Shown here piece after piece: positions 1,031 to 40,773 of a stretch of 64,000 nt of DNA (position 1 is the stretch's first letter; each line of letters starts with the position of its first letter). This DNA comes from Giardia intestinalis. Lineage: Eukaryota. The notes below the pieces were generated by a model. It did no database searches and was not told the DNA's origin. It saw nothing but the letters and a program-made list of their open reading frames with translations. The stretch lies in the NCBI GenBank assembly GCA_000002435.2, contig CM018793.1; one strand, written 5' to 3'. The position numbers were made by a program, and so were the translations under genes.

Positions 1031-1745
1031 CTGCTGTCCGAGTAAATCTCCCTGCAACGCCACCGCCCTGGGCAGGGCTCCCGCTCGCCGTCCGGGGTCC
1101 AGCCCCAGCGTCCGAAGATCAGGCGCCCTCGATCCGGGCGGGAGAACTCCTATGCCCCAGCTCCCCCGGAAGCCGCTGCTCCTCACGTTACCTCTAGGGT
1201 TCCTCCCTTCCTCTGGCCCATCGGAGTCAACTATCGTCTGGCACTGGTGGGCACCTGCTATTCAGGGTCTTGCGTCTGTTGCGGCGATCTGGCCTCCACG
1301 TGGCCCGGGGCCCTGGTGCTCTGTGACGAGGATCACACGCCACGACCTCGAGTGTCTACCCCGTTCCTCGGGGTGCCTCTTCGTCTCCTCGTGGATTGCA
1401 CCATCAGTCCCGAGCATGATCGGAGGATGCGATCCCCGTACTCCTCTATCTTGGGGTTGTGGTACGCATTCGTGGATGCCGGCGGAGTACTCATATGCGT
1501 TGTGTTGGGGAGGAGGCCCGGCAGGTGTTCCAGACCACTACTCCTCGGTGTGGGCAGGATCAATCCACTTCTGTCAGCCAGACACTCCAAGGATCCCGAC
1601 TTGCCTGTCGAGGGATTCACATGGGTCACGTGTGGGTCCGTCTCGACAAGCGTGGCGAGTGATTGGTGCCATCACTGGCTTCAGGCCCTCCGTTGCCTTG
1701 AGGGGTCCTTCGAGACCGGCCAGGAAGGAGGCCTCCTGCTCCTCT
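1031..1745 (+). repeat. Dispersed ~0.7 kb GC-rich repeat, copy A (inverted relative to copies B and C)
   Basis: 1031-1390 is near-identical to the reverse complement of 9541-9922 and 40390-40773. 1390-1745 is a diverged (~70-80% by eye) match to the reverse complement of 9238-9540 and 40025-40390. No convincing coding frame, only overlapping GC-rich ORFs on both strands. Confidence 0.7.
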
Positions 1746-3375
1746 GTGCTCCTACACCCAATGGTGACCGTCGAACCATAGCACTTCCTAGGCCTGTCGC
1801 CTCTGTGACTATCCTCGCCGCGTCACTGTTGTCGGCATGGGCACTGAGTGGGGTATCTCCTCAGCTCCCGATGAGCAGGTTCTGTCCCCCGCAGCACAGA
1901 AGCATGCTCAGGGTCCCGAGGGACCGAGTCCAGGAGTGCAGCGTGGCGCAGCCGGAGGAAGGCCTCGACGCAGCTCCTTGGAACTGTCTTGTGGAGCAAA
2001 TCATGATCGTCCGCTGATCGTGGTTGTCCTGTCCCATTCTTGGAGAAGGGCCAGGCGGAACCGTACAGAGCACGCATCCCATCCTATGGATCGCGCCGAG
2101 GATCTCGCTGAAGGCCTGCACCTGGATGGACTCGCCAGCGCAGGTCCAGGCCGTCCTGATCCGGCCCTCTGGATAGCAAGGTGCTGGTCGTCGATGGCGC
2201 TGTTAGGGGGCAGCTCCCCTTCGAGGCGAGGCTGAGGATGCAGGCCGGGCAGCGGACCGGTGAATGCCACTCCTCCGGTTCCCCGCTGCTCCACTCAGTA
2301 GCACCCTGCATCCGGTGTCTGTTCTGCATGCGTCTGGACGGCCTCGCTGTGGAGAGTCTTCATGCAGGACAGGCACGTGCTCTTCCGCTCCTACTAGTTC
2401 AACGTTCACCCGGTGCCGCTCAGCGTAGGATGCTCCGTTTCAGTGGGCTCCTGAGGCCCGGGTCGGACCTGGAGCACCGGAAGCGCGCTCATGAGTGCTT
2501 CACACGCTCGCACGAGAGGCGCGGCCTTTCCGCCGTCTCATCAGGCGCCCACTGCACCCGCGGCCCTCGTTCTCCTGGCGTCGGAGCGCATCCCCGGCGA
2601 GGGGCGGCGCTTCGCAGTGCCCTGGACGAGCTGGGCGCTCTGGTGCTGTCGTCCGCTCAACCCCGCGGCCTCGGTCGTGCTACTGGGCGGCAGGAGTCGC
2701 ACCTTAGCCCCTTGGCTGGTCTGGAGGGCGTTCCGGTTGATGCCAGAGCTGGCGTGCACGGCCTGGCTCTTCTCCCCCGGACTCGGCCGACGTTCTGACC
2801 CGAATCCCGGACTCTGGGCTTGGGGCGGCGAACGGGCGGGGTCCGCCTGCCGCGGGGAGGACTTGCACGGGGTACGGATTGCTCGGCCGGCAGGTGGCAG
2901 ACCAGCTTCGATGAGGCGGAAGGTGAGCTGCGTGGCCCTGGAGTAGCGGGTGCCCACCGGGTGTGGGGAGCAGCTGGCCCAGGTTGACTAGAGGAACGCA
3001 CCGCGGGGCAACAACGGCCCCCTAGGGAGGAAGCACAAGGCTCTTCTCCAGAGGTGGGCGACCCCCGAGCTCGAGTTCTTGTCTCAGATGCCGGGTGGTG
3101 AACGAACAAGAGACCTGCCTTCATTTGTTGTCAACTACTATTACACCCTCATCTTGTTCAACGCATCAAAGCAAAAATAAGGTTGTCTGAGTAGCTCCCA
3201 CGAGCCACCAAGCGTCCTCAGAAGCAGGCAAGCCGTGGAGACACGTTCGCTCTATATGGTTAGTTCTGGTGGTGCGCTACTTAGACTGCTCTATAGGGGA
3301 GCGGCGGCACTTTTCCGTCTCTCGGTGGTCGGTGCTGTTGAGCACTGGTGCTTCACTCTACCGGCCTTAGAGCGT

Positions 3376-4836
3376 TTACTCTGAGAGGAGGGCGACTATC
3401 TCATGGCGTCTCCATAACTTAGCCATGTCAAGGGCAGTCCCCCCATTATAACCCTTCAAGTCCTTCTCTCTCATGAGGAGCCTGACACAGTCTGTGTGAT
3501 CGTTCTTCACAGCCCACATGAGGGCCGTCCACCCGTTGCTATCTTTCAGTCCCTTCTCTTTCTCCGCGAGCAGCTCCACGATCCCTGCGTGTCCGTATAC
3601 CGCCGCTCTCATCAGGGCAGTTCCCTCGTATATCTTCCAGTCACCTACAAGTGCGCATCCCTTCATCTTCATGCCCCCCTGGAGTGGTATGAGGGCCTTC
3701 ACAGCCTCCACGTCGTTTCTGTCGACAGCCCTCATGAGGTCGGTGGAGTCGTCCTCCTCTATTAGGTGCTTCTCTGGTTCTTCTGACTCCTCCATTTCGT
3801 CTGTCTTATCCGTCTCTGTTTTAATCTCCTGCATCTCTTCAAATAGCTTGGCAGCAACAGCATAGTGTCTCCTAATGGAGTCCACTTTTGCGGCGCTATT
3901 AGTGGGATCCTTTTCGAGAGTTACTGTTTTGTTGTTGGCCCTATTCAAGGCTTCTACAAAGGCTGCACGCACCTCCTTTAGCCTTGTGTCTTGGGCCTCT
4001 TGTTCATCAGCAGAGATGCCAGGCCTCCGAAGTAGACGGACGAGCCCCCTGGCAGTCGGCCTCTCGGCGGGATCGAGGACGAGCATCCTCTCAAGGACGT
4101 TCCTTGCGAGGTCGTCTGCGACACCGCTCAGGTTCGACCTCCATCCATCGACGAAGACATCCTCTGGTTCTCTGCCCCCCAGGAAGTCCGGCTTCCTCAG
4201 GGTGGCGAGCTCGTATGCGACGGCCCCAAGGCTCCAGACGTCGGATGCGGCGGTCGTGTCACCGCTGAGGAGTGTCTCGGGGGCCATGTACGCGGGGTCG
4301 CCAGCCTTCGCAGCTCCGCTCGATATGCCCTCGCAGAACCCGAAGTCTGCAAGAACAACACGCCGCCCGTCCCCAGCGAACATGACGTTGTCGGGCTCGA
4401 GGACAACGCTAGAGGGCAGGCCGTTGTGGGCACCTCTGCTGAGCCCGTGGAGGTGGGCAAGGGCGCCAGCCAGCTGCCCCAGAAGGGAGAGCATCAGCTC
4501 GCTGGGAATAGGTTCGTGAATGTCTTTGTAGTCGGTGATGAACTGCCGGAGGTCTCCACAGCAGCGGTCTGTGACAACAAGGATCGTGTTGCCATCTGTA
4601 AGCACCTGGTGGTATTTGAGAACGTCTGGGTGAAGGGTGCCTAGAAGAGCGGTCAGCCTACGCCGAATGGCATCTACACTGTGCTGATCCAGACCATCAA
4701 GCCGGATCTCTCTCACGGCGAGGTAGGGGCATCCCCTGAGAGAGTAGACGGCACCGTGGGCATCCTTGCTGAGCATGTTACCTAGGCGTCTATGCAACTT
4801 TTTGGGGCTGAACACGGGAACGCCACCAGCGCCCAT
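3376..4836 (-). CDS. NEK-family protein kinase-like protein with C-terminal ankyrin repeats; predicted pseudokinase
   Basis: Kinase-fold landmarks are present (LADFGF = DFG, YMAPE = APE, SDVWSLG). The C-terminus carries 3-4 ankyrin repeats (GTALMRAAVYGHAGIVELL, GWTALMWAVKNDHTDCVRLL, GGTALDMAKLWRRHEIVALL). The HRDLKPxN catalytic loop reads HNGLPSS, the VAIK lysine reads LAVREI, and the Gly-loop is degenerate, so it is probably inactive. The ORF-track start at 4998 is a TTG. The first in-frame ATG is at 4834-4836, with another at 4774-4776. AGTAAAC overlaps the TAA stop (3374-3380). Confidence 0.75.
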   Translation of the reverse strand: MGAGGVPVFSPKKLHRRLGNMLSKDAHGAVYSLRGCPYLAVREIRLDGLDQHSVDAIRRRLTALLGTLHPDVLKYHQVLTDGNTILVVTDRCCGDLRQFITDYKDIHEPIPSELMLSLLGQLAGALAHLHGLSRGAHNGLPSSVVLEPDNVMFAGDGRRVVLADFGFCEGISSGAAKAGDPAYMAPETLLSGDTTAASDVWSLGAVAYELATLRKPDFLGGREPEDVFVDGWRSNLSGVADDLARNVLERMLVLDPAERPTARGLVRLLRRPGISADEQEAQDTRLKEVRAAFVEALNRANNKTVTLEKDPTNSAAKVDSIRRHYAVAAKLFEEMQEIKTETDKTDEMEESEEPEKHLIEEDDSTDLMRAVDRNDVEAVKALIPLQGGMKMKGCALVGDWKIYEGTALMRAAVYGHAGIVELLAEKEKGLKDSNGWTALMWAVKNDHTDCVRLLMREKDLKGYNGGTALDMAKLWRRHEIVALLSE

Positions 4837-5216
4837 CGGCCCTGCAAAGCCGCTAGCTGCACTGTTACTAGCGTCTCTCAGGACACCCTCTGCGGTGGCT
4901 GGGAAGTGGGCGCGGCTTGCCCGTGGGGCCTCTGAGCGCACCTGCAGGCGGGGCCAGCGATACAGTGACAGCAATGTACAGGAGTGCACCCCGAACAATC
5001 ACTCCACAAGAGAGGTGCGATCTGAGTCCGGCCCTCACTGGTCCTGTTCCTACTGAAGTCAGGGAAAACTACACTATCAGCTGGCCTCCGGTGGGTGTGC
5101 TCCTATCTTGTCCTTCTCCAGTCCAACTGATCGAGAAGAGCAAGAGCGGCTGTCTCTCACTGCTCGCGGCAACACACCAGCCTGACGGAAGAGCAGTGGC
5201 ACGTGTGCTCCGGCTA

Positions 5217-8200
5217 ATGTTGATAGGATTTCTCCTAGTTTGTGTGGTAACACGGGCAGAATGCGCCCAAAACCTGAAGGACGCGGGCTGCGAGACCTGC
5301 ACAGAGGCGGGCCCCAGCCAGACGTGCCTCACCTGTAGCGGTGGCCAGAAGGTGCTCCTCGACGGGAAGAGCTGCGGGGCCAATTGCCCGCCGAACTCTG
5401 TGGCCAGCCCGAACGTCTGCGAGTGCGACCAGGGATTCAGCCTGAACAGCGGGAAGGACGGCTGCGTGGCGGCCTCTAACACGGAATGCGCCCAAAACCT
5501 GAAGGACGCGGGCTGCGAGACCTGCACAGAGGCGGGCCCCAGCCAGACGTGCCTCACCTGTAGCGGTGGCCAGAAGGTGCTCCTCGACGGGAAGAGCTGC
5601 GGGGCCAATTGCCCGCCGAACTCTGCGGCCAGCCCGAACGTCTGCGAGTGCGACCAGGGATTCAGCCTGAACAGCGGGAAGGACGGCTGCGTGGCGGCCT
5701 CTAACACGGAATGCGCCCAAAACCTGAAGGACGCGGGCTGCGAGACCTGCACAGAGGCGGGCCCCAGCCAGACGTGCCTCACCTGTAGCGGTGGCCAGAA
5801 GGTGCTCCTCGACGGGAAGAGCTGCGGGGCCAATTGCCCGCCGAACTCTGCGGCCAGCCCGAACGTCTGCGAGTGCGACCAGGGATTCAGCCTGAACAGC
5901 GGGAAGGACGGCTGCGTGGCGGCCTCTAACACGGAATGCGCCCAAAACCTGAAGGACGCGGGCTGCGAGACCTGCACAGAGGCGGGCCCCAGCCAGACGT
6001 GCCTCACCTGTAGCGGTGGCCAGAAGGTGCTCCTCGACGGGAAGAGCTGCGGGGCCAATTGCCCGCCGAACTCTGCGGCCAGCCCGAACGTCTGCGAGTG
6101 CGACCAGGGATTCAGCCTGAACAGCGGGAAGGACGGCTGCGTGGCGGCCTCTAACACGGAATGCGCCCAAAACCTGAAGGACGCGGGCTGCGAGACCTGC
6201 ACAGAGGCGGGCCCCAGCCAGACGTGCCTCACCTGTAGCGGTGGCCAGAAGGTGCTCCTCGACGGGAAGAGCTGCGGGGCCAATTGCCCGCCGAACTCTG
6301 CGGCCAGCCCGAACGTCTGCGAGTGCGACCAGGGATTCAGCCTGAACAGCGGGAAGGACGGCTGCGTGGCGGCCTCTAACACGGAATGCGCCCAAAACCT
6401 GAAGGACGCGGGCTGCGAGACCTGCACAGAGGCGGGCCCCAGCCAGACGTGCCTCACCTGTAGCGGTGGCCAGAAGGTGCTCCTCGACGGGAAGAGCTGC
6501 GGGGCCAATTGCCCGCCGAACTCTGCGGCCAGCCCGAACGTCTGCGAGTGCGACCAGGGATTCAGCCTGAACAGCGGGAAGGACGGCTGCGTGGCGGCCT
6601 CTAACACGGAATGCGCCCAAAACCTGAAGGACGCGGGCTGCGAGACCTGCACAGAGGCGGGCCCCAGCCAGACGTGCCTCACCTGTAGCGGTGGCCAGAA
6701 GGTGCTCCTCGACGGGAAGAGCTGCGGGGCCAATTGCCCGCCGAACTCTGCGGCCAGCCCGAACGTCTGCGAGTGCGACCAGGGATTCAGCCTGAACAGC
6801 GGGAAGGACGGCTGCGTGGCGGCCTCTAACACGGAATGCGCCCAAAACCTGAAGGACGCGGGCTGCGAGACCTGCACAGAGGCGGGCCCCAGCCAGACGT
6901 GCCTCACCTGTAGCGGTGGCCAGAAGGTGCTCCTCGACGGGAAGAGCTGCGGGGCCAATTGCCCGCCGAACTCTGCGGCCAGCCCGAACGTCTGCGAGTG
7001 CGACCAGGGATTCAGCCTGAACAGCGGGAAGGACGGCTGCGTGGCGGCCTCTAACACGGAATGCGCCCAAAACCTGAAGGACGCGGGCTGCGAGACCTGC
7101 ACAGAGGCGGGCCCCAGCCAGACGTGCCTCACCTGTAGCGGTGGCCAGAAGGTGCTCCTCGACGGGAAGAGCTGCGGGGCCAATTGCCCGCCGAACTCTG
7201 CGGCCAGCCCGAACGTCTGCGAGTGCGACCAGGGATTCAGCCTGAACAGCGGGAAGGACGGCTGCGTGGCGGCCTCTAACACGGAATGCGCCCAAAACCT
7301 GAAGGACGCGGGCTGCGAGACCTGCACAGAGGCGGGCCCCAGCCAGACGTGCCTCACCTGTAGCGGTGGCCAGAAGGTGCTCCTCGACGGGAAGAGCTGC
7401 GGGGCCAATTGCCCGCCGAACTCTGCGGCCAGCCCGAACGTCTGCGAGTGCGACCAGGGATTCAGCCTGAACAGCGGGAAGGACGGCTGCGTGGCGGCCT
7501 CTAACACGGAATGCGCCCAAAACCTGAAGGACGCGGGCTGCGAGACCTGCACAGAGGCGGGCCCCAGCCAGACGTGCCTCACCTGTAGCGGTGGCCAGAA
7601 GGTGCTCCTCGACGGGAAGAGCTGCGGGGCCAATTGCCCGCCGAACTCTGCGGCCAGCCCGAACGTCTGCGAGTGCGACCAGGGATTCAGCCTGAACAGC
7701 GGGAAGGACGGCTGCGTGGCGGCCTCTAACACGGAATGCGCCCAAAACCTGAAGGACGCGGGCTGCGAGACCTGCACAGAGGCGGGCCCCAGCCAGACGT
7801 GCCTCACCTGTAGCGGTGGCCAGAAGGTGCTCCTCGACGGGAAGAGCTGCGGGGCCAATTGCCCGCCGAACTCTGCGGCCAGCCCGAACGTCTGCGAGTG
7901 CGACCAGGGATACACGCTCAACGCCGGAAAGACCGCGTGCGAGAAGGCCTCTAACACACAGTGTAATACTCCCAACTGCAAGATCTGTGATAACCCCAAA
8001 ACAGACAACGAAATCTGCACTGAATGTAATGATAACAATTACCTCACCCCGACAAAGCAGTGCACGCAGAGCTGCGGAGCAATAGGAAGCTACTACAACG
8101 GAGACAAAGTGTGCGAGCCTTGTGATTCTAGCTGTGCTGCGTGCACCACAACGGGACCAGCGAAGTGCACGCTGTGTCCTCCCGGGAAGAGGCTCCAGTA

Positions 8201-8906
8201 CACCAATGATGATCCTAGTCAAGGTGGATCCTGCGTAGATGAGTGCAAGCCCCAGAGTGGAGCTAGCGGATGCGAGACCTGCGGAGCCACCATCGGAGGG
8301 ACAAAGTATTGCTCGAAGTGCAGCACATCCACGGAGGTCCCCGTCAACGGAGTCTGTACAGCAGACAATGCCCGCGCGCCCGTATGCTCGAAAAAGGACA
8401 ATCAGGGAGGGTGCACTACGTGTGCCAGTGGGTACTTCCTCCAAGACGGCGGTTGCTATAAGACTGACAGACAGCCCGGTGAGCAGATATGCACACTAGC
8501 TGATAGCAATGGTGGATGTCAGACGTGCGCCAATAGTCTTCAGCCTAATAATGGAGCATGCCCTTCGTGTCACTCGACATGCAAGACATGTCGTGATGCT
8601 AATTCTGCAAATACTTGTACAACGTGTGCAACTGGGTACTACATGGTTGGATTAAATGCTGGGCCATGCACTTCGTGTGACAGCAACAGTGGAAGTGTCA
8701 AGGGAGTTGCTGGCTGCATGAGCTGCGCTCCTCCATCTAGCAATACTGGCTCCGTCCTCTGCTATCTCATAAAGGATACCGGTAGCACGAACAAGAGCGG
8801 CCTTTCTACCGGCGCCATCGCGGGGATCTCCGTGGCTGTCATCGTCGTTGTGGGGGGCCTTGTGGGCTTCCTCTGCTGGTGGTTCCTGTGTAGGGGGAAG
8901 GCGTGA
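5217..8906 (+). CDS. Variant-specific surface protein (VSP) with 12 tandem 75-aa cysteine-rich modules
   Basis: ATG at 5217 gives signal peptide MLIGFLLVCVVTRA. The ORF-track start 4917 is TTG with a non-secretory leader. The protein has many CxxC motifs and a GGCY motif (FLQDGGCYKTD). The C-terminal TM helix is AIAGISVAVIVVVGGLVGFLCWWFL, followed by the invariant Giardia VSP tail CRGKA and the stop. AGTAAAC poly(A) signal lies at 8914-8920. Confidence 0.9.
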   Translation: MLIGFLLVCVVTRAECAQNLKDAGCETCTEAGPSQTCLTCSGGQKVLLDGKSCGANCPPNSVASPNVCECDQGFSLNSGKDGCVAASNTECAQNLKDAGCETCTEAGPSQTCLTCSGGQKVLLDGKSCGANCPPNSAASPNVCECDQGFSLNSGKDGCVAASNTECAQNLKDAGCETCTEAGPSQTCLTCSGGQKVLLDGKSCGANCPPNSAASPNVCECDQGFSLNSGKDGCVAASNTECAQNLKDAGCETCTEAGPSQTCLTCSGGQKVLLDGKSCGANCPPNSAASPNVCECDQGFSLNSGKDGCVAASNTECAQNLKDAGCETCTEAGPSQTCLTCSGGQKVLLDGKSCGANCPPNSAASPNVCECDQGFSLNSGKDGCVAASNTECAQNLKDAGCETCTEAGPSQTCLTCSGGQKVLLDGKSCGANCPPNSAASPNVCECDQGFSLNSGKDGCVAASNTECAQNLKDAGCETCTEAGPSQTCLTCSGGQKVLLDGKSCGANCPPNSAASPNVCECDQGFSLNSGKDGCVAASNTECAQNLKDAGCETCTEAGPSQTCLTCSGGQKVLLDGKSCGANCPPNSAASPNVCECDQGFSLNSGKDGCVAASNTECAQNLKDAGCETCTEAGPSQTCLTCSGGQKVLLDGKSCGANCPPNSAASPNVCECDQGFSLNSGKDGCVAASNTECAQNLKDAGCETCTEAGPSQTCLTCSGGQKVLLDGKSCGANCPPNSAASPNVCECDQGFSLNSGKDGCVAASNTECAQNLKDAGCETCTEAGPSQTCLTCSGGQKVLLDGKSCGANCPPNSAASPNVCECDQGFSLNSGKDGCVAASNTECAQNLKDAGCETCTEAGPSQTCLTCSGGQKVLLDGKSCGANCPPNSAASPNVCECDQGYTLNAGKTACEKASNTQCNTPNCKICDNPKTDNEICTECNDNNYLTPTKQCTQSCGAIGSYYNGDKVCEPCDSSCAACTTTGPAKCTLCPPGKRLQYTNDDPSQGGSCVDECKPQSGASGCETCGATIGGTKYCSKCSTSTEVPVNGVCTADNARAPVCSKKDNQGGCTTCASGYFLQDGGCYKTDRQPGEQICTLADSNGGCQTCANSLQPNNGACPSCHSTCKTCRDANSANTCTTCATGYYMVGLNAGPCTSCDSNSGSVKGVAGCMSCAPPSSNTGSVLCYLIKDTGSTNKSGLSTGAIAGISVAVIVVVGGLVGFLCWWFLCRGKA
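5259..7910 (+). repeat. Tandem array: ~11.8 copies of a 225-bp unit (75 aa, ECAQNLKDAGCETCTEAGPSQTCLTCSGGQKVLLDGKSCGANCPPNS(A/V)ASPNVCECDQGFSLNSGKDGCVAASNT) inside the VSP
   Basis: Unit starts (gaatgcgcccaaaacc) at 5259, 5484, 5709 ... 7734, with exact 225-bp period. By eye the copies are identical except one T/C (Val/Ala) difference in copy 1. The array decays into unique sequence at 7911. Confidence 0.9.
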
Positions 8907-8913
8907 CTTAGGT

Positions 8914-8920
8914 AGTAAAC
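8914..8920 (+). promoter_or_regulatory. Putative Giardia poly(A) signal AGTAAAC 8 nt after the VSP stop
   Basis: Matches the AGTPuAAPy consensus described for Giardia 3' ends. Position is 8-14 nt downstream of TGA (8904-8906). Confidence 0.5.
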
Positions 8921-9237: not shown

Positions 9238-9922
9238 CCTGGACCGACGCCTCGACAGACCGAAGCATCACCCCCAAGTGTGTTGTGCAGATGGACCAGC
9301 CCACACGTCACTGAGCCAGACACACTGCACAGAATGAGCGTCGACATGATCTCGTACTGGCTGACGGACCATCCACAAGAGCGCACTGCGATCATGAGCA
9401 GAGGGATGGGCCTCTCCCCTGATACCACCGCATGGGAGTACTCCATCGGCATCCACGAACGCGTACTATGACTCCAGGATAGAGGCGCACGGGGAGCGCA
9501 CCCCCGACAGCAGGGTCGATGGTCCACGTCATGGGGAGACGAAGAGGCACCCCGAGGAACGGGGTAGACACTCGAGGTCGTGGCGTGTGATCCTCGTCAC
9601 AGAGCACCAGGGCCCGGGCCACGTGGAGACCAGATCGCCGCAACAGACGCAAGACCCTGAATAGCAGGTGCCCACCAGTGCCAGACGATAGTTGACTCCG
9701 ATGGGCCAGAGGAAGGGAGGAACCCTAGAGGTAACGTGAGGAGCAGCGGCTTCCGGGGGAGCTGGGGCATAGGAGTTCTCCCGCCCGGATCGAGGGCGCC
9801 TGATCTTCGGACGCTGGGGCTGGACCCCGGACGGCGAGCGGGAGCCCTGCCCAGGGCGGTGGCGTTGCAGGGAGATTTACTCGGACAGCAGCTGCAAACT
9901 AACCTTGGTAAACAGAGTAAAT
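9238..9922 (-). repeat. Dispersed ~0.7 kb GC-rich repeat, copy B
   Basis: 9238-9922 is ~95-99% identical to 40087-40773, apart from one ~40-bp divergent patch near 9571-9610 where B instead matches copy A. It is the reverse complement of 1031-1745. It starts 331 bp after the VSP stop and ends 7 bp before the stop codon of the minus-strand gene 9930..12521. Confidence 0.75.
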
Positions 9923-9929
9923 TATTTGC

Positions 9930-12521
9930 TTATATAAATATTCCCTCATACATTCCTGCATCCCGGCCTGTGTGTCCTGCCCCCTTAACAGATGCCCTGT
10001 ATGGATCTCTGAGAGCGTCATTTCGATCCCTCATAAGCTCCCATTCTTTTTGTGTTCTGTGCAGATCCGCTTTCCGCTTTGCAGTCTTCGCAGCTTCATC
10101 TGCGGTGATTCTCTTTTGCTGCTCCAGGTCAGCTTGTTGCTTCCTCTTACATTCAGATCGTTCCTCCGCTTGTCTATGTTTAGTTAACTGTATGTTTTCC
10201 AATCGTTTTTGCTTGACCTCGCTTGCTATTTGCGCTTTCTCTGGCCCTGGATATGCTGCCTTTGTGTAGAACATATCCGTTGTTTTTGTGTAGGTATTGG
10301 TTAAGATATTCTCAGTAAATATCTTGACAGTACTTTTCTCTTTGGCCCGCGCGTTTAGTTTTTGCCGTAAAGCATTTGCGGCAGCTCGTGCAACCTCCCC
10401 TTGCTCTATCTGCTCGCGACTTTGCTCCTCACGTGTCTTAATACGCTTACCTAACTCTTTCTCATAGCTATCAATTATTTCCTTGGTAGACTCCTGAACG
10501 GCATCTATATACTTTTGATAGATGGAGAAATCAACACGTACATCTGCGGTTAGCTTCATTTGCTCTCTATCGGCGCGAATAGCTTCTCTTACCCGTGCTA
10601 CCTGCTCACATTTTCGTTGCAGCTCAGCCTGTTCATTCTCTTTCGCTTCCAAAATAGCTTTACGACGATCCTCTAGAATCTGAAGATTAACCTCTTTCAT
10701 GAGAAGGAGCCGCTGCCGTAGCTCTGTAAGAGACATTTCATCTAATAAGCCGTGACCTGCCGTAGTAGAGGAGTCATACTTTTCAAGTAATTTCTTTTCG
10801 CGCTCTGCTCCAACTATTTCCAGCATAGCCTTAATTTGCTTCACTAGCTCTATCCTTTCGATGCTCTCAGCAAGCTTTAAGTCTGCCATATACTCCACGT
10901 TTTGAAGATGCTCTTGTCTTCGCTCGTCCGCGAGCCTCTGCTTCTCTCTCGCTAAATCTTTTTTAGCTTCATCCACCTTTAATTGTAACATGTCGTGCTG
11001 TTCCTTAGCATGCCGCTGAGCCTCTTGGAGTCGTTTATCATCTCTTTCAAAGTACTCAAGGAGCTGCTGAAAATGCTCTTTATTTTCCTCACTTACCTTA
11101 GCTGTTTTCAACTTTAGCGCCACTTCCCGCGCATGTTTTGCATCTTCGAAAGCTAGCTTCGCATCACGCTTATGAAGCTCTATTTCGGCAAGGCGCTTCT
11201 GTTTGTCGAGCTCAAGCATGGCTGCTCGCCACATATCAAACTCCGAACTATCCCGCAAGCCAGCCATATACATATTAAGCTCTTGGGCCTCCACATCCAA
11301 CGCCTTTTCTATAATTGCGTTAGCTCGCAAAATAGTCGCTTTTGTCTCTCTTGGCGGTGGAACCTGGACATATCTCTTGCGTGCCATGGCTTGCTTTCGT
11401 TCAATAGATGCAGCAGCCTCCCGGGCGGCCTCCTCCTGCTTCTTATCGTCCAGTTTCTTTTTGGCCTCGGCGTGCCGACGCTTATCCTCGCTGTACCATT
11501 CAGCTGTGCGCTTATCTGGTTTAGTCAGTTGAGGGAGGAATTGTTTGCGCTCCTCCTCTGCTTTCTTTAGCACCTCGTTCATTGGCTTATTAAGCATAGC
11601 AAGTGGGGCTTTCTTTGCCGTATAGCAGTATTCAGCCTGCACCTCTTCTGGAGTAATATCTGTAATTTTCTTTGATAAAGAAACACTGGTCACAGGAGCA
11701 CTAAACTTTGTGCCAAGTGCTGGTGCTATCGGAGGTGGTGTTCGCCCTTTTTGCCAGGCGCTTTTAGCTTCTGACTTTTGGGATAGCATGGCTATTAGAT
11801 CTGTCGCTTCCTGGTAACAATTATGAACAATCGCATGTGTCAAAGGTCCACGAACATATGTCTCATCAAAGTGTGACTCTAAGATACGTCTTAGATGAAT
11901 AGATAGCCGCGCGTCTTGAACTACGGGCTGTATTGCCTGTTGCATTAATGAATCCTCGGTAGCTTTGTACCTATCGTTTTCCGAGCTACTTTCGTCACCA
12001 GAGCCCTTTTCCGCGATATCTACCGATCCCTTAGTTATTTTGGAAGGTGAGGCGTCGCCCCAAACCAGTCGCAAAAATGGCAGAATAACAGAGGCTTGCT
12101 GAGACACCAGGATGGCTCGTAGCTTGGAAAACGGTTGGCGCAAAAGCTCAAAAATGGTATAGTAAAACAATACATAATAGAGGTTCTTAGCAGATGGAAG
12201 GAGCTGGGGATTTTGCGCGTAAAGTAGGTCAGTACAGCTTTTAAGAACAGGCCTGTTGCTAGCAACCCCGCAACACACATCACTAATGAATTGTCGCTGC
12301 TGTATAGTCATTTGGTCAGTCATATTCTTCAGTGGAGCAGAGGTAGAGACGCCCACAGCAGAGCAGTCGATCCTCACACTGCCTGTTTCATCATCAGTTT
12401 GAGGAATGTACACGGTGTAGTTTTGGAGTACTCCTTCAACGTACTGATAGATATCCTCTCTTGCAGGGCTGTAGTTCGTTAGGCAGCCGCATATTATATC
12501 GACAATAGAGCGAATTTTCAT
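9930..12521 (-). CDS. Large coiled-coil protein (hypothetical; charged K/E/R/Q-rich heptad-like central region)
   Basis: 863-aa ORF with ATG at 12519-12521, preceded on its strand by AT-rich caaaaaactaaaaATG. Residues ~300-800 are dominated by KEELRQ-rich stretches typical of coiled coils (e.g. LQEAQRHAKEQHDMLQLKVDEAKKDLAREKQRLADERRQEHLQN). No recognisable catalytic motifs. Confidence 0.6.
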   Translation of the reverse strand: MKIRSIVDIICGCLTNYSPAREDIYQYVEGVLQNYTVYIPQTDDETGSVRIDCSAVGVSTSAPLKNMTDQMTIQQRQFISDVCCGVASNRPVLKSCTDLLYAQNPQLLPSAKNLYYVLFYYTIFELLRQPFSKLRAILVSQQASVILPFLRLVWGDASPSKITKGSVDIAEKGSGDESSSENDRYKATEDSLMQQAIQPVVQDARLSIHLRRILESHFDETYVRGPLTHAIVHNCYQEATDLIAMLSQKSEAKSAWQKGRTPPPIAPALGTKFSAPVTSVSLSKKITDITPEEVQAEYCYTAKKAPLAMLNKPMNEVLKKAEEERKQFLPQLTKPDKRTAEWYSEDKRRHAEAKKKLDDKKQEEAAREAAASIERKQAMARKRYVQVPPPRETKATILRANAIIEKALDVEAQELNMYMAGLRDSSEFDMWRAAMLELDKQKRLAEIELHKRDAKLAFEDAKHAREVALKLKTAKVSEENKEHFQQLLEYFERDDKRLQEAQRHAKEQHDMLQLKVDEAKKDLAREKQRLADERRQEHLQNVEYMADLKLAESIERIELVKQIKAMLEIVGAEREKKLLEKYDSSTTAGHGLLDEMSLTELRQRLLLMKEVNLQILEDRRKAILEAKENEQAELQRKCEQVARVREAIRADREQMKLTADVRVDFSIYQKYIDAVQESTKEIIDSYEKELGKRIKTREEQSREQIEQGEVARAAANALRQKLNARAKEKSTVKIFTENILTNTYTKTTDMFYTKAAYPGPEKAQIASEVKQKRLENIQLTKHRQAEERSECKRKQQADLEQQKRITADEAAKTAKRKADLHRTQKEWELMRDRNDALRDPYRASVKGAGHTGRDAGMYEGIFI

Positions 12522-12550
12522 TTTTAGTTTTTTGTGTAGTGGCTGATGCC

Positions 12551-29691: not shown

Positions 29692-29692
29692 T

Positions 29693-33895: not shown

Positions 33896-34646
33896 GCTCC
33901 GAAAGCTATATGATAACTAATGTAAGAAGCAGAAATGCGTTGGGGCTTTTTGAAAATGGCCCTACCCCGTGCCGGCCACGCGGCCTCTAGACCAGCGAGG
34001 CGAGGAGCTTCTTGATTCCTGGGCGCGCGCGGTAGCCATCAGACAGCTCGCGCAGCGGCGGAAACTGGTCCACGAGCTCCGGACACTCTGCGTCCGCATA
34101 ATACAGGACCTCCAGGACCGCGTAGTTCGAGTCGAGCGGTTCGAACGCCAGGCTCCGAAGGCTCAACACGTCTAGTTAGAATCCTGGTTTGTCGGTAGGC
34201 TGCAATGCACTCCGAGCGCGTCATCTCCACCCCCGTAGCCTGACTGCCTTTGGCAATGCTGCTAAATAGCTGGAAGTTCCTTACTTGATGCAAACATGCA
34301 GAGCGAGCGGTTTACATATCGGGAACTCTAGCTACTGGTTGGCTTTACAATGTGAATCACCTGCCCTGTGCATTTACAACTTCGCTTCTAGATTTTATTG
34401 CCAGAGGTTCAACTCCACAGGGCCCTACCTCCGTGTAAACTAGTGCAATGCTTCGTCGGAGAAGGGTACTTCAAGATATGTGCAAATAGATCCAAAGTTG
34501 TGACGTATTGATGTGAATTTGCTGTACACAATCTTGGGAATAACCTAGGTACGCTCTACTTCCAGTTGTAACTGGTTAACTAGCAGAATTCTCTTTACAT
34601 TTATAACATACTGGTAGCACAATCAACCACTCTTTAAAATCACTGT

Positions 34647-37600
34647 ATGCTGATTCTCCTGTATGCTACTGTATTCTTCGCCAGTGCATGCGGGACAGGA
34701 CCTGCATGTGTTAACGGAGACTGCGCCTACGGGGACGGAGCATACTTCTGCCAGTGCAGGCGGGGCTGGGCGGGGGCTGCGTGCGATGCTCCCCGTGCAG
34801 GGTTCTGCAGGGTAACTACTAATACTGGCAAGGCATCCACAGACAGGGCCGTCAACTACGCCTGCCTCGTTAACGAAACCGAATGCACAGGGTCGAGCAA
34901 GTGCACCTACTACGCGGGGGCGTACTCGTGCGACCCCTGTCCCGATGGCTTCGTGTCCTACGAGGGCGAGTGCCTGCCGAGGGGCTGCTTCAACACCGAC
35001 GACTTCTCAAACCAGGAGGCAACGAAGGCCCCCTGCAACGGCCGCGGCCGCTGCCTCCTGAAGGACCCCGGGCTGGCAGGGATGGATGCTGACGACTACG
35101 CGTGCGACTGCTACCCGATCTACCGCGGGAGCCTCTGCCAGTCGTGCGACGACGCCAACGCGATCGCTGCGGGAAGCTCTTCGTCTGATGCCCTCCCTAC
35201 GTGCAATGCGCGGGCCTGCCAGGACTCGGATGGCATCGTGTGCTCAGGCCAGGGAACGTGCATCCTCGACGTGGGCCTCGACCGCGAATCATATCACTAC
35301 CGCTGCAAGTGCAATGCTGGCTACACACGCGTTGGGCACAAGTGCGTCAGGACAGAGTGCGTGGCCACAATCGACGGGTCCCCGGTCGTCTGCGGGGGCT
35401 TCGGGAACTGCACAGATGAGGGCAATACCGGTACCTTCAAGTGCGTTTGCGATTCTAATGCAGTCCCGGTCGGTCAGTTTTGCACATATCCCGCGTGCAC
35501 AGACAGCGCTGCTACTGAGATCTGTGGTGGAGTGGGCGCCTGTGTGCGCAACGGGGCTGGCTATAAGTGCGATTGCCGAGGGCTTGCCACGGGCGACCTC
35601 TGTGATACTTGCACTCCTGGGAAATCCGCTCAGGTAGGCGACAAGTGCGTTCCAGTGGGGTGCCTCACCTCAAACAACCAGGAATCATGCAAGAACGGAG
35701 GAACATGCGTCAAGTCCGATGGCGAGTACCACTGCCGCTGCCCGGACATGCTCATTGCCGTCAGCGGAGAGTGCACGTCCCCCGCATGCATGGACGAGGA
35801 GCTGGGGAAGGTCTGCTCGGGACACGGTACGTGCAAGACGGACGATCTACGAAATATACAATGCACTTGTGGTCAGGACTATACTTATATCGCCCCGGGG
35901 CGCTGCATCCTAACAGCCTTGATGGACGGCGACCGAATCTGCAGCGGCCACGGCCACGTTAGCATCGACACCTCGGATCCTCCCACGATGACCTGCAGGT
36001 GCTCGTCGATCTACGAGGGGTCCAAGTGCGAGACCTGCAAGGCCTCTGTCGCCCAGGAGATCGAGGGCGAGTGCGTCCCAACCAAGTGCATTGTGGCACC
36101 CCAGCCCGGATCGCGAGCCACCACTCCCAGGGTCTGCGACGACCACGGCCAATACACGAAGTTCGGCGACCCGAGCGACCCGTTTGCCACGTGCACCCCC
36201 AAGGACCCCGACTCCGGGACCGTCTCCGCCTACAATGGCACCTTCCTTGCGAGGCCCGGGTGCGTGCATGTCAGCAAGGTAGACAGGACCAGGAGGTTTT
36301 ACTGCGGATTCCTGCAGGGACTGACAGACAACTTGCAGGAAGGCGTGGTAACGTGCAATACACAGAACGAGGGATCTGTGTCTGTTGAGACGTGCAATGG
36401 TTGCCCAGAGGGCTTTAAGCTTGTCCACTTCGGGGCAGAAGAGGGCTATAGAAAGACATGTATGCACGACAACTGCTACCACGGAACTGGCGCCAGCAGG
36501 ATGTGGTACGACTACTGCGGCGGGACCGGCGACTGCATCAAAGAGGGTGACACGTACAGGTGCGACTGCGGCCCCAGTGCCACTTGGAACGAGGGCCTGA
36601 AGGCGTGCGTCACCGAGGCGTGCAAGCTTGATAAAAAGCTCGCCGGCCCAGGGGCGCCCGAGTACTGCGCAGCGCCATCTAGCCTTACGCTCCACTGCAC
36701 CGTCGGCCGGGACGCGGCCTGGCAGTGCGATTGCCCCCAGGGCGACTACCTCACGTACAACAGGACGTGCATCCTGAGGAGCAAGAGCGCCAGCCCCACG
36801 ACTCATCGAGCAAGGGGGCTTTGCGGCGGCCCCGGGGCGGGCTTCCTGAGCGGCAGCGGGTCCTGCGTCTGCAACCCGGGCTTCCTCAAGATCGACGACA
36901 TGTGCTACAGCTATAACTGCTTGCCAGTTGGCGTGACATCTTCGGCTAGTCTGAAAGTTGATTCTCATGTCTGCTCCGGGAAAGGAATCTGCACGTACAA
37001 CCAGCTGACTGGTCGGTACGGCTGCGAGTGCGAAAGTGGCCTGGAGGCCTTCGGGGGTTACTGCACGCGTCCTGAATGTGTTGGGATAGTGATACATAAT
37101 GGAGAAATCAGGCACGTCGAGTGCAAGGTCTACGACGGGTCCGTGGGCAGCTGTACGCTAGACGCAAATACGAACACATATGCCTGTAGGTGTGGCGTCG
37201 GATACAAGGTTGCGTATGGCATTTGTGTCCACAGAGGGTGCATGCCGGACACCGTCTATTGCGGAGGAGACGCATTGGCTTCGTGTGTGAGAGGAGATGA
37301 TAGTCGCTACAGCTGCATCTGCTCTGAAGGCTACGAGCTGAGCGAGGAGCGAAACGAGCACGGGAACAAGGCCAAGTGTGTCCCAAGCAAATGCATGTAT
37401 AAAGCGTCCACAAGCAGCGCCGCTACCGAATGCAATGGCTTAGGGGCATGTAGCGGTGACGAGGTGCCTTTGTTAAAAAATAAGGAGTGCAGATGCATCG
37501 ATGGTGCAACCGAATATATGCTTAGAGACGCAAGCGGCGAGATGAAGAAAACATGCATGCTAGAAAAGTGCATCTCTCGTATGGATGGAGAGGTGCCAGT

Positions 37601-38012
37601 GATCTGTGGAGGCTCGGGTAGATGTGGACCTGGGGGGTGTATATGCGATCTGGGAACTGAGTTGGTTGGAAATACCTGTGTTGGTCTCAATTGCTTCATT
37701 AATACTAAGGATGCTGATGGACGAGTGACCAAATCGATATGTGGCGGTGACACGATTGGTGTGTGCACAAAGATAGCGTCGCACGGCGATCGTCGAGACT
37801 ACGCTTGTAAGTGCAAGGACCCGAGGCCTGACGGGTATGAAGAACTTGATGGGTTCTGTCTGCCAAAAGCTTGCATATTTGAAATCACAACCTTGACTAA
37901 TCAGCAGGTGAGGACGATGTGCGGTGGAAAGCAGTTTGGAACATGCGTTCTTAATGCTACTCAATCATCCAAGTCATACTGTAAGTGCATAAATCGATAT
38001 GACATTATTTAA
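34647..38012 (+). CDS. High-cysteine protein (HCMP family), N-terminal segment with signal peptide; terminates at an in-frame TAA
   Basis: 1121 aa. Signal peptide MLILLYATVFFASA, then dense CxxC/CxC/EGF-like modules (GYKCDC, GEYHCRC, CGGxGxC). No TM segment before the stop at 38010-38012. Same reading frame as 38031..39701. Confidence 0.75.
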   Translation: MLILLYATVFFASACGTGPACVNGDCAYGDGAYFCQCRRGWAGAACDAPRAGFCRVTTNTGKASTDRAVNYACLVNETECTGSSKCTYYAGAYSCDPCPDGFVSYEGECLPRGCFNTDDFSNQEATKAPCNGRGRCLLKDPGLAGMDADDYACDCYPIYRGSLCQSCDDANAIAAGSSSSDALPTCNARACQDSDGIVCSGQGTCILDVGLDRESYHYRCKCNAGYTRVGHKCVRTECVATIDGSPVVCGGFGNCTDEGNTGTFKCVCDSNAVPVGQFCTYPACTDSAATEICGGVGACVRNGAGYKCDCRGLATGDLCDTCTPGKSAQVGDKCVPVGCLTSNNQESCKNGGTCVKSDGEYHCRCPDMLIAVSGECTSPACMDEELGKVCSGHGTCKTDDLRNIQCTCGQDYTYIAPGRCILTALMDGDRICSGHGHVSIDTSDPPTMTCRCSSIYEGSKCETCKASVAQEIEGECVPTKCIVAPQPGSRATTPRVCDDHGQYTKFGDPSDPFATCTPKDPDSGTVSAYNGTFLARPGCVHVSKVDRTRRFYCGFLQGLTDNLQEGVVTCNTQNEGSVSVETCNGCPEGFKLVHFGAEEGYRKTCMHDNCYHGTGASRMWYDYCGGTGDCIKEGDTYRCDCGPSATWNEGLKACVTEACKLDKKLAGPGAPEYCAAPSSLTLHCTVGRDAAWQCDCPQGDYLTYNRTCILRSKSASPTTHRARGLCGGPGAGFLSGSGSCVCNPGFLKIDDMCYSYNCLPVGVTSSASLKVDSHVCSGKGICTYNQLTGRYGCECESGLEAFGGYCTRPECVGIVIHNGEIRHVECKVYDGSVGSCTLDANTNTYACRCGVGYKVAYGICVHRGCMPDTVYCGGDALASCVRGDDSRYSCICSEGYELSEERNEHGNKAKCVPSKCMYKASTSSAATECNGLGACSGDEVPLLKNKECRCIDGATEYMLRDASGEMKKTCMLEKCISRMDGEVPVICGGSGRCGPGGCICDLGTELVGNTCVGLNCFINTKDADGRVTKSICGGDTIGVCTKIASHGDRRDYACKCKDPRPDGYEELDGFCLPKACIFEITTLTNQQVRTMCGGKQFGTCVLNATQSSKSYCKCINRYDII

Positions 38013-38030
38013 ATAACAAATGGAAAGTGT

Positions 38031-39701
38031 ATGAAGAAAACCTGTCTTAGCGACTCTCTTTCTGGAGGTCCGGAGGGATACGTTGAATGTTCTGGGCATG
38101 GGAAGTGTATAGGGGATCATATTGTGGGGTACTCGTGCAATTGTGACGAAAATTATCAAACGGTTGCAGACGATCGCCGTTATTTGTGCGTACCGGCTGT
38201 CTGTGTTGTATCAGAGACAAATTCCAGTACTATATGCAACGGAAGAGGGACCTGTCAGTTCAAGACAGACCCAGGAAAGTGCGAGTGTAGGCCTGGGTAT
38301 GATGGTACCAAATGTGAGACGTGTGCAAATGGCTACAAGGAACACACAAATGCGCAATGCTACCTCAATGGCTGTCCGGCAGACAATTGTGGCACGGAGG
38401 AAAATACTAGCGTAGGAGCTTGCCAACTTAGCGGAAACAGTTTTGCTTGCGTCTGCGTCAACTCGAGCTTCGTCGTTGACAGTGCTAGCAAGAAGTGCCG
38501 AAAATCCAGATGCGTTTGGACGGATCCATACGATCAGACAGAAAAAACGTGCTACGGCATGGGTACGTGCAATGATAACGGCGAGGACACTGGGGCGTGT
38601 GTTTGCAACCCCGGGACAACCCTAGTCGGGACAAACATCTGTGTTTATAGCCAGTGCATCTCGGATGAGAACGGCTCTAAAACAGTGTGTAAGGGGCGCG
38701 GAGTATGCATCGCGAGCCTTGTGGCTGGCCAGGGAATGTGCCAGTGCAGTGATCAGTATCGCACAGACAAGAAGACCGGCCAGTGCTTTGTCAAGGAGTG
38801 CTTCGGGGCGCATGCAAGCATCTCTGCAGAGGTATGCGACGGTGGTGGAACGTGTAATGAAAATACTAAGAAGTGCGATTGTAATTCTGGTTTCCAAAAT
38901 CTTCCTGGCCAGAATGGCTGCGTGCACAGCAATTGTATTTCGTCGGACCAGAAGCTCTGCAGCGGCTTCGGCGCCTGCGAGAATAACAATGGCAATTACA
39001 TGTGTCTGTGTGCTAACTATTACACCCTGGTTGGAAGGGACTGCATCCCCACAAGGTGTCTCAAGGACGGGAAAGTCTGCAACGGCGGCGGCACGTGCTC
39101 CGGCGAGGGATTCTCTGCTACCTGCAGCTGCAGCCAGGGCTGGACCCTCCACGGGACCCTCTGCTACCCATCGGCCTGCGTTTCCGGCGGGACACTCTGC
39201 GGGGGGAATGGCAACTGTCCACTTTCCACAGATAGTACATGCGAGTGCAAGTATGGGTATGAAAGTGTTCTTGACCAGCTCTGCATCAGCAGCCAGTGCG
39301 TCCAGCGCGGCACCGACGGCACCGTGACGATCTGCGGGGGCAACGGCAGGTGCGTGTCTGAGAACGGCGTAAAGCCCACTTGCATATGCGATGAAGGCTT
39401 CTCTCTCACAAGCGACTTCGTCTGCGGAGTCCCTGCTCCATCTAACAAATCCTCGGGTGGCACGACGGCTGCGATCGTGGTCGTCGTCCTCCTCGTCCTT
39501 GCTGCGGTGGCCGGCTTCCTTGTCTGGTGGTTCGTGATACGGCCCAGGAGAGGCGGCCCACTGAGGGAGCGCGCCCCGCAGAAAGGCTCCAAGTCTTCCA
39601 GGTCCAAGCTCAAGCGGCAAGCAACTTCTAACGCATCACTCCACGCTGACGTGCCCCTGCTGAGTCAGCTGTCTGGTGCCAACTCCAGCATCCAGCTCTA
39701 G
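38031..39701 (+). CDS. High-cysteine membrane protein (HCMP), C-terminal segment: Cys-rich ectodomain, TM helix, basic cytoplasmic tail
   Basis: 556 aa in the same frame as 34647..38012, 6 codons after its TAA. It starts MKKTCLSDS, with no signal peptide of its own, and has CxxC/CxC modules throughout. The C-terminus reads TAAIVVVVLLVLAAVAGFLVWWFVIRPRRGGPLRERAPQKGSKSSRSKLKRQ..., a TM helix plus charged tail as in HCMPs. It lacks CRGKA, so it is not a VSP. Confidence 0.75.
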   Translation: MKKTCLSDSLSGGPEGYVECSGHGKCIGDHIVGYSCNCDENYQTVADDRRYLCVPAVCVVSETNSSTICNGRGTCQFKTDPGKCECRPGYDGTKCETCANGYKEHTNAQCYLNGCPADNCGTEENTSVGACQLSGNSFACVCVNSSFVVDSASKKCRKSRCVWTDPYDQTEKTCYGMGTCNDNGEDTGACVCNPGTTLVGTNICVYSQCISDENGSKTVCKGRGVCIASLVAGQGMCQCSDQYRTDKKTGQCFVKECFGAHASISAEVCDGGGTCNENTKKCDCNSGFQNLPGQNGCVHSNCISSDQKLCSGFGACENNNGNYMCLCANYYTLVGRDCIPTRCLKDGKVCNGGGTCSGEGFSATCSCSQGWTLHGTLCYPSACVSGGTLCGGNGNCPLSTDSTCECKYGYESVLDQLCISSQCVQRGTDGTVTICGGNGRCVSENGVKPTCICDEGFSLTSDFVCGVPAPSNKSSGGTTAAIVVVVLLVLAAVAGFLVWWFVIRPRRGGPLRERAPQKGSKSSRSKLKRQATSNASLHADVPLLSQLSGANSSIQL

Positions 39702-40024
39702 CCCGCTGCCCGCAAGGTGTCGGTATTGGTAAGTCGACGGCGCGGATCTGCATACGAATGTAAATTGAAACGTAAGAGACGGGCCGGTTAGTGCTTAGAA
39801 CTGTCGGCGTGTTTTGCACGCTTGTCTGGGAACGGGATCGAGAGCGACTACTATAGTCCAGATGCAAGGTATAGGCGGAGGCCTTACTGCAGTACCTGCT
39901 CCCTGTCCTCAGGCAGAGGGACTCCTCGGACCAAGCCCTCCGCCACGTGGTCGTCGCATCCTATGTGTGCGCCTCTGTGCTCCTGTACGAGGGGCTCGTC
40001 CTGGGGAGGCTGCACTATATCGCA

Positions 40025-40773
40025 AACGAGTGTGCGGGCGGACGGGCGTTCCTGGTGCCTCAGACGACACCCTTCAGAGAGGTGGCCCTGGACCGACGCC
40101 TCGACAGACCGAAGCATCACCCCCAAGTGTGTTGTGCAGATGGACCAGCCCACACGTCACTGAGCCAGACACACTGCACAGAATGAGCGTCGACATGATC
40201 TCGTACTGGCTGACGGACCATCCACAAGAGCGCACTGCGATCATGAGCAGAGGGATGGGCCTCTCCCCTGATACCACCGCATGGGAGTACTCCATCGGCA
40301 TCCACGAACGCGTACTATGACTCCAGGATAGAGGCGCACGGGGAGCGCACCCCCGACAGCAGGGTCGATGGTCCACGTCATGGGGAGACGAAGAGGCACC
40401 CCGAGGAACGGGGTAGACACCCGGGGTCATAGCGTATCCCATCTTCGTCATGGAGCACCAGGGCCCGGGCCACGTGGAGACCAGATCGCCGCAACAGACG
40501 CAAGACCCTGAATAGCAGGTGCCCACCAGTGCCAGACGATAGTTGACTCCGATGGGCCAGAGGAAGGGAGGAACCCTAGAGGTAACGTGAGGAGCAGCGG
40601 CTTCCGGGGGAGCTGGGGCATAGGAGTTCTCCCGCCCGGATCGAGGGCGCCTGATCTTCGGACGCTGGGGCTGGACCCCGGACGGCGAGCGGGAGCCCTG
40701 CCCAGGGCGGTGGCGTTGCAGGGAGATTTACTCGGACAGCAGCTGCAAACTAACCTTGGTAAACAGAGTAAAT
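40025..40773 (-). repeat. Dispersed ~0.7 kb GC-rich repeat, copy C
   Basis: 40087-40773 is near-identical to 9238-9922. 40025-40086 additionally shows ~70% similarity to the reverse complement of 1690-1745, a region copy B lacks. It ends 28 bp upstream of the dynein ATG at 40801 and begins ~320 bp after the HCMP stop. Confidence 0.75.

Follow-up and report, generated by a model that had tools for sequence, protein, structure and literature searches.

The window analysed here is a stretch of 64,000 nucleotides from Giardia intestinalis strain WB (ATCC 50803), whose genes were given their identifiers by exact protein matches. By the same matches it belongs to the 4.02-Mb chromosome of WB, and a RING gene lies at its left edge. 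Core genes around the locus of interest (TOR kinase, dynein, PCNA) place it in the interior of the chromosome, and between them lie VSP, HCMP and NEK genes together with three copies, here called A, B and C, of a GC-rich repeat of about 0.7 kb that adjoins these genes. The repeat is the subject of this analysis. It had been picked out in an original prediction made from the letters of the window, which offered a degenerate mobile element, a recombination substrate and a family of structured RNA genes as candidate explanations. Copy ends were also said to coincide with gene boundaries, and this is correct for copy B, which ends 7 bp from the stop codon of GL50803_16194, while the distance from copy C to the dynein ATG is 27 nt rather than 28.

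The repeat itself is real, and its similarity far exceeds chance. Copies B and C (9238-9922 and 40087-40773) repeat each other in direct orientation at 98.4% identity over 687 nt, with a start-to-start spacing of 30,849 nt that agrees with the 30.8 kb reported earlier. Of the two starts that had been proposed for C, 40025 and 40087, the second is where identity with B begins, and homology to the family as a whole begins near 40047. Copy A is inverted relative to B, and 8,297 nt separate the two arms, which bracket the NEK gene and the repeat-containing VSP gene as described. A core of 282 nt in copy A (1031-1312) is 99% identical to 9610-9891 in B and to 40461-40742 in C. Over the longer interval 1031-1519 copy A is 92.7% identical to B and 90.4% identical to C, with the identity dropping to 60-82% between the equivalents of 9408 and 9550. 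Copy A had been given the limits 1031-1745; its homology to B and C ends at 1519, and the sequence from 1517 to 2048 belongs to the same element family, with the matching parts absent from B and C. Compared with longer family members copy A has an internal deletion of approximately 283 bp at 1519 (homology to the comparison contigs L003, L004 and L005 resumes after 277-289 bp), and at this single junction, read against L004, there is only an imperfect overlap of 3-4 nt, (T)GGG. The GC content of the copies is 0.62-0.64 against 0.48 for the window, which confirms the earlier figure of 60% or more.

No reading frame is conserved across the copies, as the original prediction had stated. Substitutions among family members lack codon periodicity and 1-nt indels are frequent, and on these two grounds we rejected a coding gene. 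We also rejected an origin as a VSP pseudogene, as a tblastx comparison of the A region with the window found no relation to the VSP, HCMP or NEK genes. The two annotated “hypothetical proteins” that overlap the copies are by-products of the relics: GL50803_24471 is a piece of the sense-strand open reading frame (ORF) of a dead element and not an independent gene, and GL50803_31391 is an antisense chance ORF on relic A.

The repeat is not limited to three copies, as had been supposed. When the minus-strand translation of B was used as query in a protein search, roughly a dozen spurious ORFs came up, from other loci and strains of Giardia, and the contigs that carry these ORFs contain further members at 77-89% nucleotide identity. 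In total there are at least ten more distinct members in Giardia genomes beyond A, B and C. Two of these adjoin a CPSF_A gene (L001 and L002), one follows a VSP tail in strain DHA2 (L003), one lies near VSP genes (L005), and two more are found in WB itself, at GL50803_30984 and at a deprecated ORF. Judged by its longer members, the family has a length of 1.2 kb or more. The copies therefore occur in several independent assemblies and at other loci, which removes the concern, raised with the original prediction, that they might be unique to this locus and an artefact of assembly. Longer copies also carry an inverted module of the 3′ region on their 5′ side, of 174 bp at 14399-14572 of the P15 contig introduced below (E 3e-12) and of 186 bp at 2935-3120 in the window, the latter also matching 942-1118 of L003 by blastn. 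A protein search with a six-frame concatenate of 1900-3380 gave no match among the 8,000 candidates listed, and an exact-pattern scan of JGI metagenomes with a conserved 19-mer gave 15 chance matches, none of them from Giardia.

The nature of the element is clearest in isolate P15 of assemblage E. There the ortholog of GL50803_16194 (contig ACVC01000177, L030) is followed by a 1.8-kb copy of the family that opens 7 bp after the stop codon and is matched by the family profile with an nhmmer E of 2.6e-149. The same contig contains, at 16935-20948, an element bearing a reverse transcriptase (RT). This element is broken into three ORFs, and on either side of it stands one arm of a 1.2-kb inverted repeat, the two arms being 99.9% identical. 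Against Pfam the ORFs score above the curated cut-off for RVT_1 (1e-11 and 8e-10). A YADD box is present in them, and they match the R2 structures 9nl2 and 8gh6 as well as LINE-1 RT structures. Downstream of the RT a CxxC...HxxxC knuckle followed by RHD and decayed PD...D motifs can be read by eye (CVLCGARMHEDHIQNC, RITRHD and KPGLFLPD...IDVGIV). Motifs of this kind are characteristic of elements with a restriction-like endonuclease. Alignment of the P15 relic to the 3′ part of the RT element (19655-20869) runs in the sense of the ORFs and gives 66.6% identity over 1,235 nt (E 1e-82); to the C-terminal region of the element's RT it gives 62% over 133 aa (E 7e-50). A direct match of the RT element to the family profile has an E of 4.6e-20. 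The relic is in turn connected to copy A by tblastx, in which window positions 1828-1977 match 13989-14138 of the relic, and the C-terminal region of the element finds all three window copies at the protein level (Table 1).

Since both DNA and protein homology lead to the RT element of P15, we read the repeats as the 3′ end of a dead retrotransposon of the kind that lacks long terminal repeats (non-LTR). More fully, and with a probability of roughly 80%, the repeats are dead, 5′-truncated or internally deleted 3′ ends of a non-LTR (LINE-like) retrotransposon, most probably GilD, which are old insertions and which recombine with one another. In the parent element the reverse transcriptase would have been succeeded, towards the C-terminus, by a zinc knuckle and a restriction-like endonuclease, and each copy would retain a decayed remnant of the endonuclease-coding sequence and about 260 nt of 3′ untranslated region (UTR) ending in AGAGTAAAT. 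The sense strand of the element is the plus strand in B and C and the minus strand in A, and the 99% core corresponds to the final few codons and the 3′ UTR. In copy A a variant 3′ terminus with AAAGTAAAG may reach approximately 990. The copies have ceased to move and to code, but would still recombine. The suggestion of a relic of a GilD-like dead retrotransposon is therefore supported, both by the homology to the P15 element and by agreement with the published description of GilD (PMC2861651), and about 2-3 kb of unlabelled GC-rich DNA at the WB locus can be annotated as retrotransposon relics.

The P15 element resembles R2-type elements in the order of RT, CCHC-type knuckle and endonuclease (the motifs again being those read by eye), in the match of its RT to the two R2 structures, and in the lack of a poly(A) tail at the ends of the insertions. 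Unlike R2-type elements, the Giardia repeats show no ribosomal DNA target or site specificity, and the endonuclease region of the P15 element has no sequence match to solved R2 proteins.

Table 1. Positions of the relics, of neighbouring genes and of protein-level matches in the window (tblastn matches are to the C-terminal region of the P15 RT element)
Feature	Position	Strand	Description
Copy A, 3′ part	1031..1519	-	~230 nt 3′ UTR and remnant of C-terminal endonuclease domain
Copy A, distal part	1517..2048	-	Remnants of endonuclease N-terminal and RT C-terminal regions; collinear with P15 relic 13543-14396
Match to P15 element, copy A	1423-1265	-	tblastn, 36% over 67 aa, E 1e-5
GL50803_31391, “hypothetical protein”	1427..2017	+	On relic A; no Pfam match
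Inverted, diverged 3′ module beside NEK tail	2935..3120	+	nhmmer, E 2e-6 to positions 797-993 of the family profile
Cargo between A and B	3376..8906	.	NEK kinase and VSP
NEK kinase	3376-4836	-	Between copies A and B
VSP with twelve 225-bp tandem repeats	5217-8906	+	Between copies A and B
Copy B, 5′-truncated relic	9238..9922	+	Endonuclease remnant ~9238-9663; 3′ UTR ~9664-9922 (~260 nt)
Matches to P15 element, copy B	9343-9384, 9434-9610		tblastn, in pieces, E 1e-3
Putative gene-conversion tract	9572..9601	.	All 11 B/C differences, B = A
AGAGTAAAT	9914..9922	+	Element 3′ terminus, read from sequence; matches AGTRAAY
GL50803_16194, CFAP99-like coiled-coil protein	9930..12521	-	Stop codon 7 bp from copy B 3′ end
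“High cysteine protein” gene	38031-39701		In the island bounded by copy C
GL50803_24471, “hypothetical protein”	39862..40320	+	Includes DMISYWLTDHPQER, which aligns to the P15 endonuclease region
Copy C, 5′-truncated relic	40047..40773	+	Ends 27 nt before dynein ATG
Match to P15 element, copy C	40078-40461		tblastn, including zinc-knuckle area, E 5e-5
Dynein heavy chain GL50803_14242	40801..57519	+	ATG 27 nt downstream of copy C 3′ end
Match to P15 element, AII copies			49% over 76 aa, E 2.6e-15
Match to P15 element, family consensus			E 3e-9

Each of the three sites carries a relic in sub-assemblage AI as well as in AII. At the B site the 7-bp junction to the GL50803_16194 stop codon (...ATTTACTCTGTTTACCAAGG...) is identical in WB, in AII-type genomes and in P15. 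No relic was found at this site in assemblage B (L031 and L032) or in a more distant Giardia lineage (L033-L035), where the sequence after the stop codon is AT-rich and the search with the family profile was empty. By parsimony the insertion beside GL50803_16194 dates to the common ancestor of assemblages A and E, and the copies would thus be old insertions of which this one is older than the split between the two assemblages. In short-read assemblies the contigs of assemblage A behave in a characteristic way at copy B, six of them (L007-L012) stopping 31-62 nt into it. The relics are systematic contig-break points in short-read Giardia assemblies, and variant calling at these places will also be misled by read mapping.

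The divergence of the relics does not follow that of their surroundings. The flanking sequences of WB and AII have an identity of 97-100%, while that of the relics is 86-89% when gap-free aligned columns are counted and 81-85% in BLAST alignments with gaps. For AII the orthologs were taken from the AII-type contigs L004 (copy A) and L006 (copy B) and from DHA2 contig L029 at 9400-10260 (copy C). These AII copies are 99.8-100% alike over a shared stretch of about 500 nt, and in longer alignments the ortholog of C shows 99.8% identity with that of B (575 nt) and 95.2% with that of A (681 nt). The WB copies are 90.5-98% alike among themselves, and in a neighbour-joining tree the copies cluster by genome and not by locus. 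A second sign of exchange is found inside copy B. All 11 of the differences between B and C fall within 9572-9601, B has the base of A at each one, and elsewhere B and C are identical; the patch in which B agrees with A was thus correctly recognised in the original prediction, with a length nearer 30 bp than the 40 bp given. A candidate from DHA2 contig L028 (DHA2_153045) was rejected as the ortholog of copy C, being an 81%-identical HCMP paralog at another locus with no relic nearby.

Taken together, the clustering by genome and the 30-bp patch point to concerted evolution by ectopic gene conversion. We infer from these sequence comparisons that the relics are kept alike within a lineage by such conversion, which would act on the inverted pair (8 kb) as well as on the direct pair (31 kb). 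The three relics, all within 40 kb, would exchange sequence and so remain near-identical in each genome, with a drift of 11-14% between AI and AII. Other dispersed repeats known to evolve in concert, such as LTR pairs, ribosomal DNA and the VSP and pseudo-VSP genes of Giardia, likewise show clustering by genome and short mosaic tracts. At A, B and C the process appears to act on copies in direct as well as inverted orientation, over distances of up to 40 kb, and the substrate, in contrast to those cases, is the tail of a dead retrotransposon and not an antigen gene. For Giardia, in which recombination and sexuality are matters of debate, the locus offers a clean case, open to checking, in which dispersed repeats separated by as much as 40 kb convert one another.

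Comparison with P15 also suggests a rearrangement. The P15 relic beside the GL50803_16194 ortholog continues through sequence that in WB belongs to copy A (window 1513-2048), and it then runs by way of the inverted module into a NEK-like tail, with 14611-14836 of L030 matching window 3374-3594. This P15 block is collinear with the A locus of WB, and its orientation to GL50803_16194 is opposite. The P15 relic therefore looks like the 3′ junction of B joined to the 5′ continuation of A, which is the expected product of recombination between inverted relics. This suggests that the block of relic and NEK gene has been inverted relative to P15 by recombination between the inverted copies, and the A/B pair probably mediated an inversion of the NEK and VSP segment since assemblages A and E separated. 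Copy A has the same orientation in WB and AII. The result is a candidate inversion around a VSP gene with its breakpoints in relics.

A number of points weigh against the retrotransposon reading or parts of it. Pfam found no domain in the ORFs and six-frame translations of 1000-3400, so that the retrotransposon origin is undetectable from the window alone, and the protein similarity of the window copies taken by themselves is weak (E 1e-3 to 1e-5). The endonuclease region of the P15 element has no match in Pfam or in a sequence search of the PDB. Across the family members there is no common terminus, poly(A) tail or target-site duplication, and the empty site of assemblage B is too diverged for a target-site duplication to be defined. 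The name GilD was set from the described properties of that family. The AII copies on which the by-genome clustering depends come from three different short-read assemblies, and the inversion is drawn from a single P15 contig, a NEK family with many paralogs and the near side of the interval only.

As to the name of the family, GilM (5,474 bp) and GilT encode an RT with a C-terminal endonuclease and have a long 3′ UTR that ends in the Giardia polyadenylation signal. GilD is said to go back to Arkhipova & Morrison in 2001 and the Genie 2 element to Burke et al. in 2002; we presume that GilD is probably the same as Genie 2, and that GilM and GilT correspond to Genie 1. Genie 2 copies reportedly carry inverted repeats of up to 172 bp, with which the inverted 3′ modules of 174 and 186 bp agree. 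Gladyshev & Arkhipova (PMC2861651) single out GilD, among the three Giardia families, as the one disrupted by microhomology-mediated deletions, and place it beside VSP genes where genes are few. Remnants of RT have also been described between VSP genes arranged in head-to-head pairs by Xu et al. (PMC7000408), and tail-to-tail VSP pairs are described as having spacers of about 2.6 kb (PMC7000408, PMC2996952). The repeats share with GilD an origin from a non-LTR RT element, a state in which all copies are dead (frameshifts, stop codons, internal deletions) and a dispersed, non-telomeric distribution in gene-poor regions beside VSP genes (PMC2861651). Because the copies are dead, internally deleted, internal to the chromosome and situated beside VSP, HCMP and NEK genes, we consider it likely that the family is GilD-type, an assignment made by described properties and not by sequence alignment. 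The kind of element is already known in WB, and what is added here is the homogenisation within lineages, the insertion shared by A and E, and the possible inversion. The homogenisation of A, B and C in each sub-assemblage, and a site beside GL50803_16194 that is common to assemblage E and empty in B, are absent from the GilD descriptions that we compared.

In P15 the 1.2-kb repeats around the 4-kb RT element (L030 15738-22144) carry NEK/ankyrin-like coding sequence. This setting parallels that of the head-to-head VSP pairs of WB with a pseudo-RT between them, and hints that such elements lie at the centre of inverted gene duplications.

Alternatively, the repeats might descend from GilM or GilT, the active telomeric families, as old 3′ fragments at interstitial sites. 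These families come from the same host and belong to the same general class, small interfering RNAs are reported for them, and the arrangement of RT, C-terminal zinc knuckle and endonuclease is reportedly common to all non-LTR families of Giardia. Long 3′ UTRs are also reported (PMC5537684). However, GilM and GilT are intact and form head-to-tail arrays at chromosome ends, while A, B and C are single, truncated and decayed copies, internally deleted and lying between core genes and beside VSP genes, as GilD is described (PMC2861651, PMC7000408). GilM has at least nine near-identical copies in WB (PMC7000408), and a protein search with the repeat returned no such high-copy ORFs. A GilM or GilT origin is very unlikely. 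Even less credence can be given to an unannotated family of structured non-coding RNA genes, although a GC-rich sequence without a conserved frame, with a polyadenylation-type signal at its 3′ end and with the 3′ ~200 nt best conserved between lineages (97% in the bin 40600-40799) might give that impression. No Rfam family matches at the gathering score, the scan of the whole window returning only a tRNA at 59313-59384, and the minimum free energy is no better than that of dinucleotide shuffles on either strand (z = +1.14 for the plus strand and −0.29 for the minus strand). Large deletions and many indels distinguish the copies, and protein-level homology to a retrotransposon ORF already accounts for the sequence. 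The repeats are neither a structured RNA nor a live gene, and this candidate of the original prediction can be set aside.

A different question is whether the repeats, placed at the borders of surface-antigen islands, have been selected as a device for recombination that inverts, deletes or converts VSP and HCMP cassettes so that the repertoire changes. The geometry is suggestive, as A and B are inverted around the NEK and VSP genes with their 3′ ends outward, and C stands at the boundary of the HCMP/HCP island. Concerted evolution of the three is seen in two lineages, the block of relic and NEK gene is oppositely oriented in P15, and the HCMP island is a mosaic between WB and DHA2 (73-99% in 200-bp bins). 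Against this, the sequence is the decaying tail of a retrotransposon without conserved ends, other members stand beside ordinary genes such as the CPSF_A gene, and the second island has no left-hand partner. The same orientation of A in WB and AII means that no ongoing flipping is seen, and VSP switching is reported to be epigenetic and not to occur by rearrangement (PMC2996952). A selected device is therefore unlikely. The earlier proposal of a recombination substrate holds for the process, given the concerted evolution in two lineages, the 30-bp patch and the inversion relative to P15, and does not extend to an adaptive shuffling of cassettes, for which there is no evidence. A broader idea, which we put forward tentatively and regard as doubtful, is that GilD-type relics are working breakpoints of variable-gene islands, with inverted and direct pairs repeatedly converting each other and inverting or reshuffling the intervening VSP, NEK and HCMP segments, as the comparison of WB with P15 suggests, and that GL50803_16194 and the dynein have recruited their conserved 3′ termini, the one as its polyadenylation signal and the other as promoter-proximal sequence. 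If this were true, a “dead” transposon family would be a structural organiser of the antigen repertoire.

The polyadenylation signal of Giardia has the consensus AGTRAAY. The 3′ end of the relic contains AGTAAAT-type signals on both strands (ATTTACT...AGTAAAT). Read from the minus strand, the near-palindromic partner ATTTACT at 9875-9881 becomes AGTAAAT and lies 49 nt downstream of the GL50803_16194 stop codon. Where the relic is missing, the GL50803_16194 ortholog is followed by a GAGTAAAT of its own, 75-90 nt past its stop codon (about 85 in L031 and L032, about 75 in L033). In the A and E lineages the first such signal, 49 nt past the stop codon, sits within the relic, and judging from the sequence this signal may have been co-opted by GL50803_16194. 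At copy C, the dynein of DHA2 (L029 10001-10270, equivalent to window 40448-40798) is annotated as “partial” with an N-terminus 90 aa longer than that of WB, and this extension, which is read through relic C, is probably an annotation artefact.

The cysteine-rich genes near the relics show features of their own. In the VSP gene between A and B, 12 head-to-tail units of 225 bp (75 codons) occupy 5259-8033. Eleven of them do not differ at all (100% identity), and the last one is 76% identical. Units so uniform suggest either a very recent expansion or continual homogenisation. Across the HCMP/HCP island (34000-40000) divergence from L029 is mosaic, ranging from 73 to 99.5% identity in 200-bp bins, while the flanking core genes are 97-100% identical; this is the pattern expected of patchy gene conversion among cysteine-rich paralogs. 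Two cysteine-rich ORFs of WB, 34647-38012 and 38031-39701, are neighbours in the same orientation. Their DHA2 counterpart (L029 4084-9140) is divided differently, into 1557 and 128 aa, and a DHA2 paralog elsewhere (L028 8001-13067), which is 81% identical to the HCMP gene, is a single ORF of 1,688 aa. The two WB ORFs may be one interrupted HCMP gene. Further along the window, the tRNA noted above (Rfam RF00005, 55.5 bits) lies within a locally GC-richer kilobase with a GC content of 0.55.

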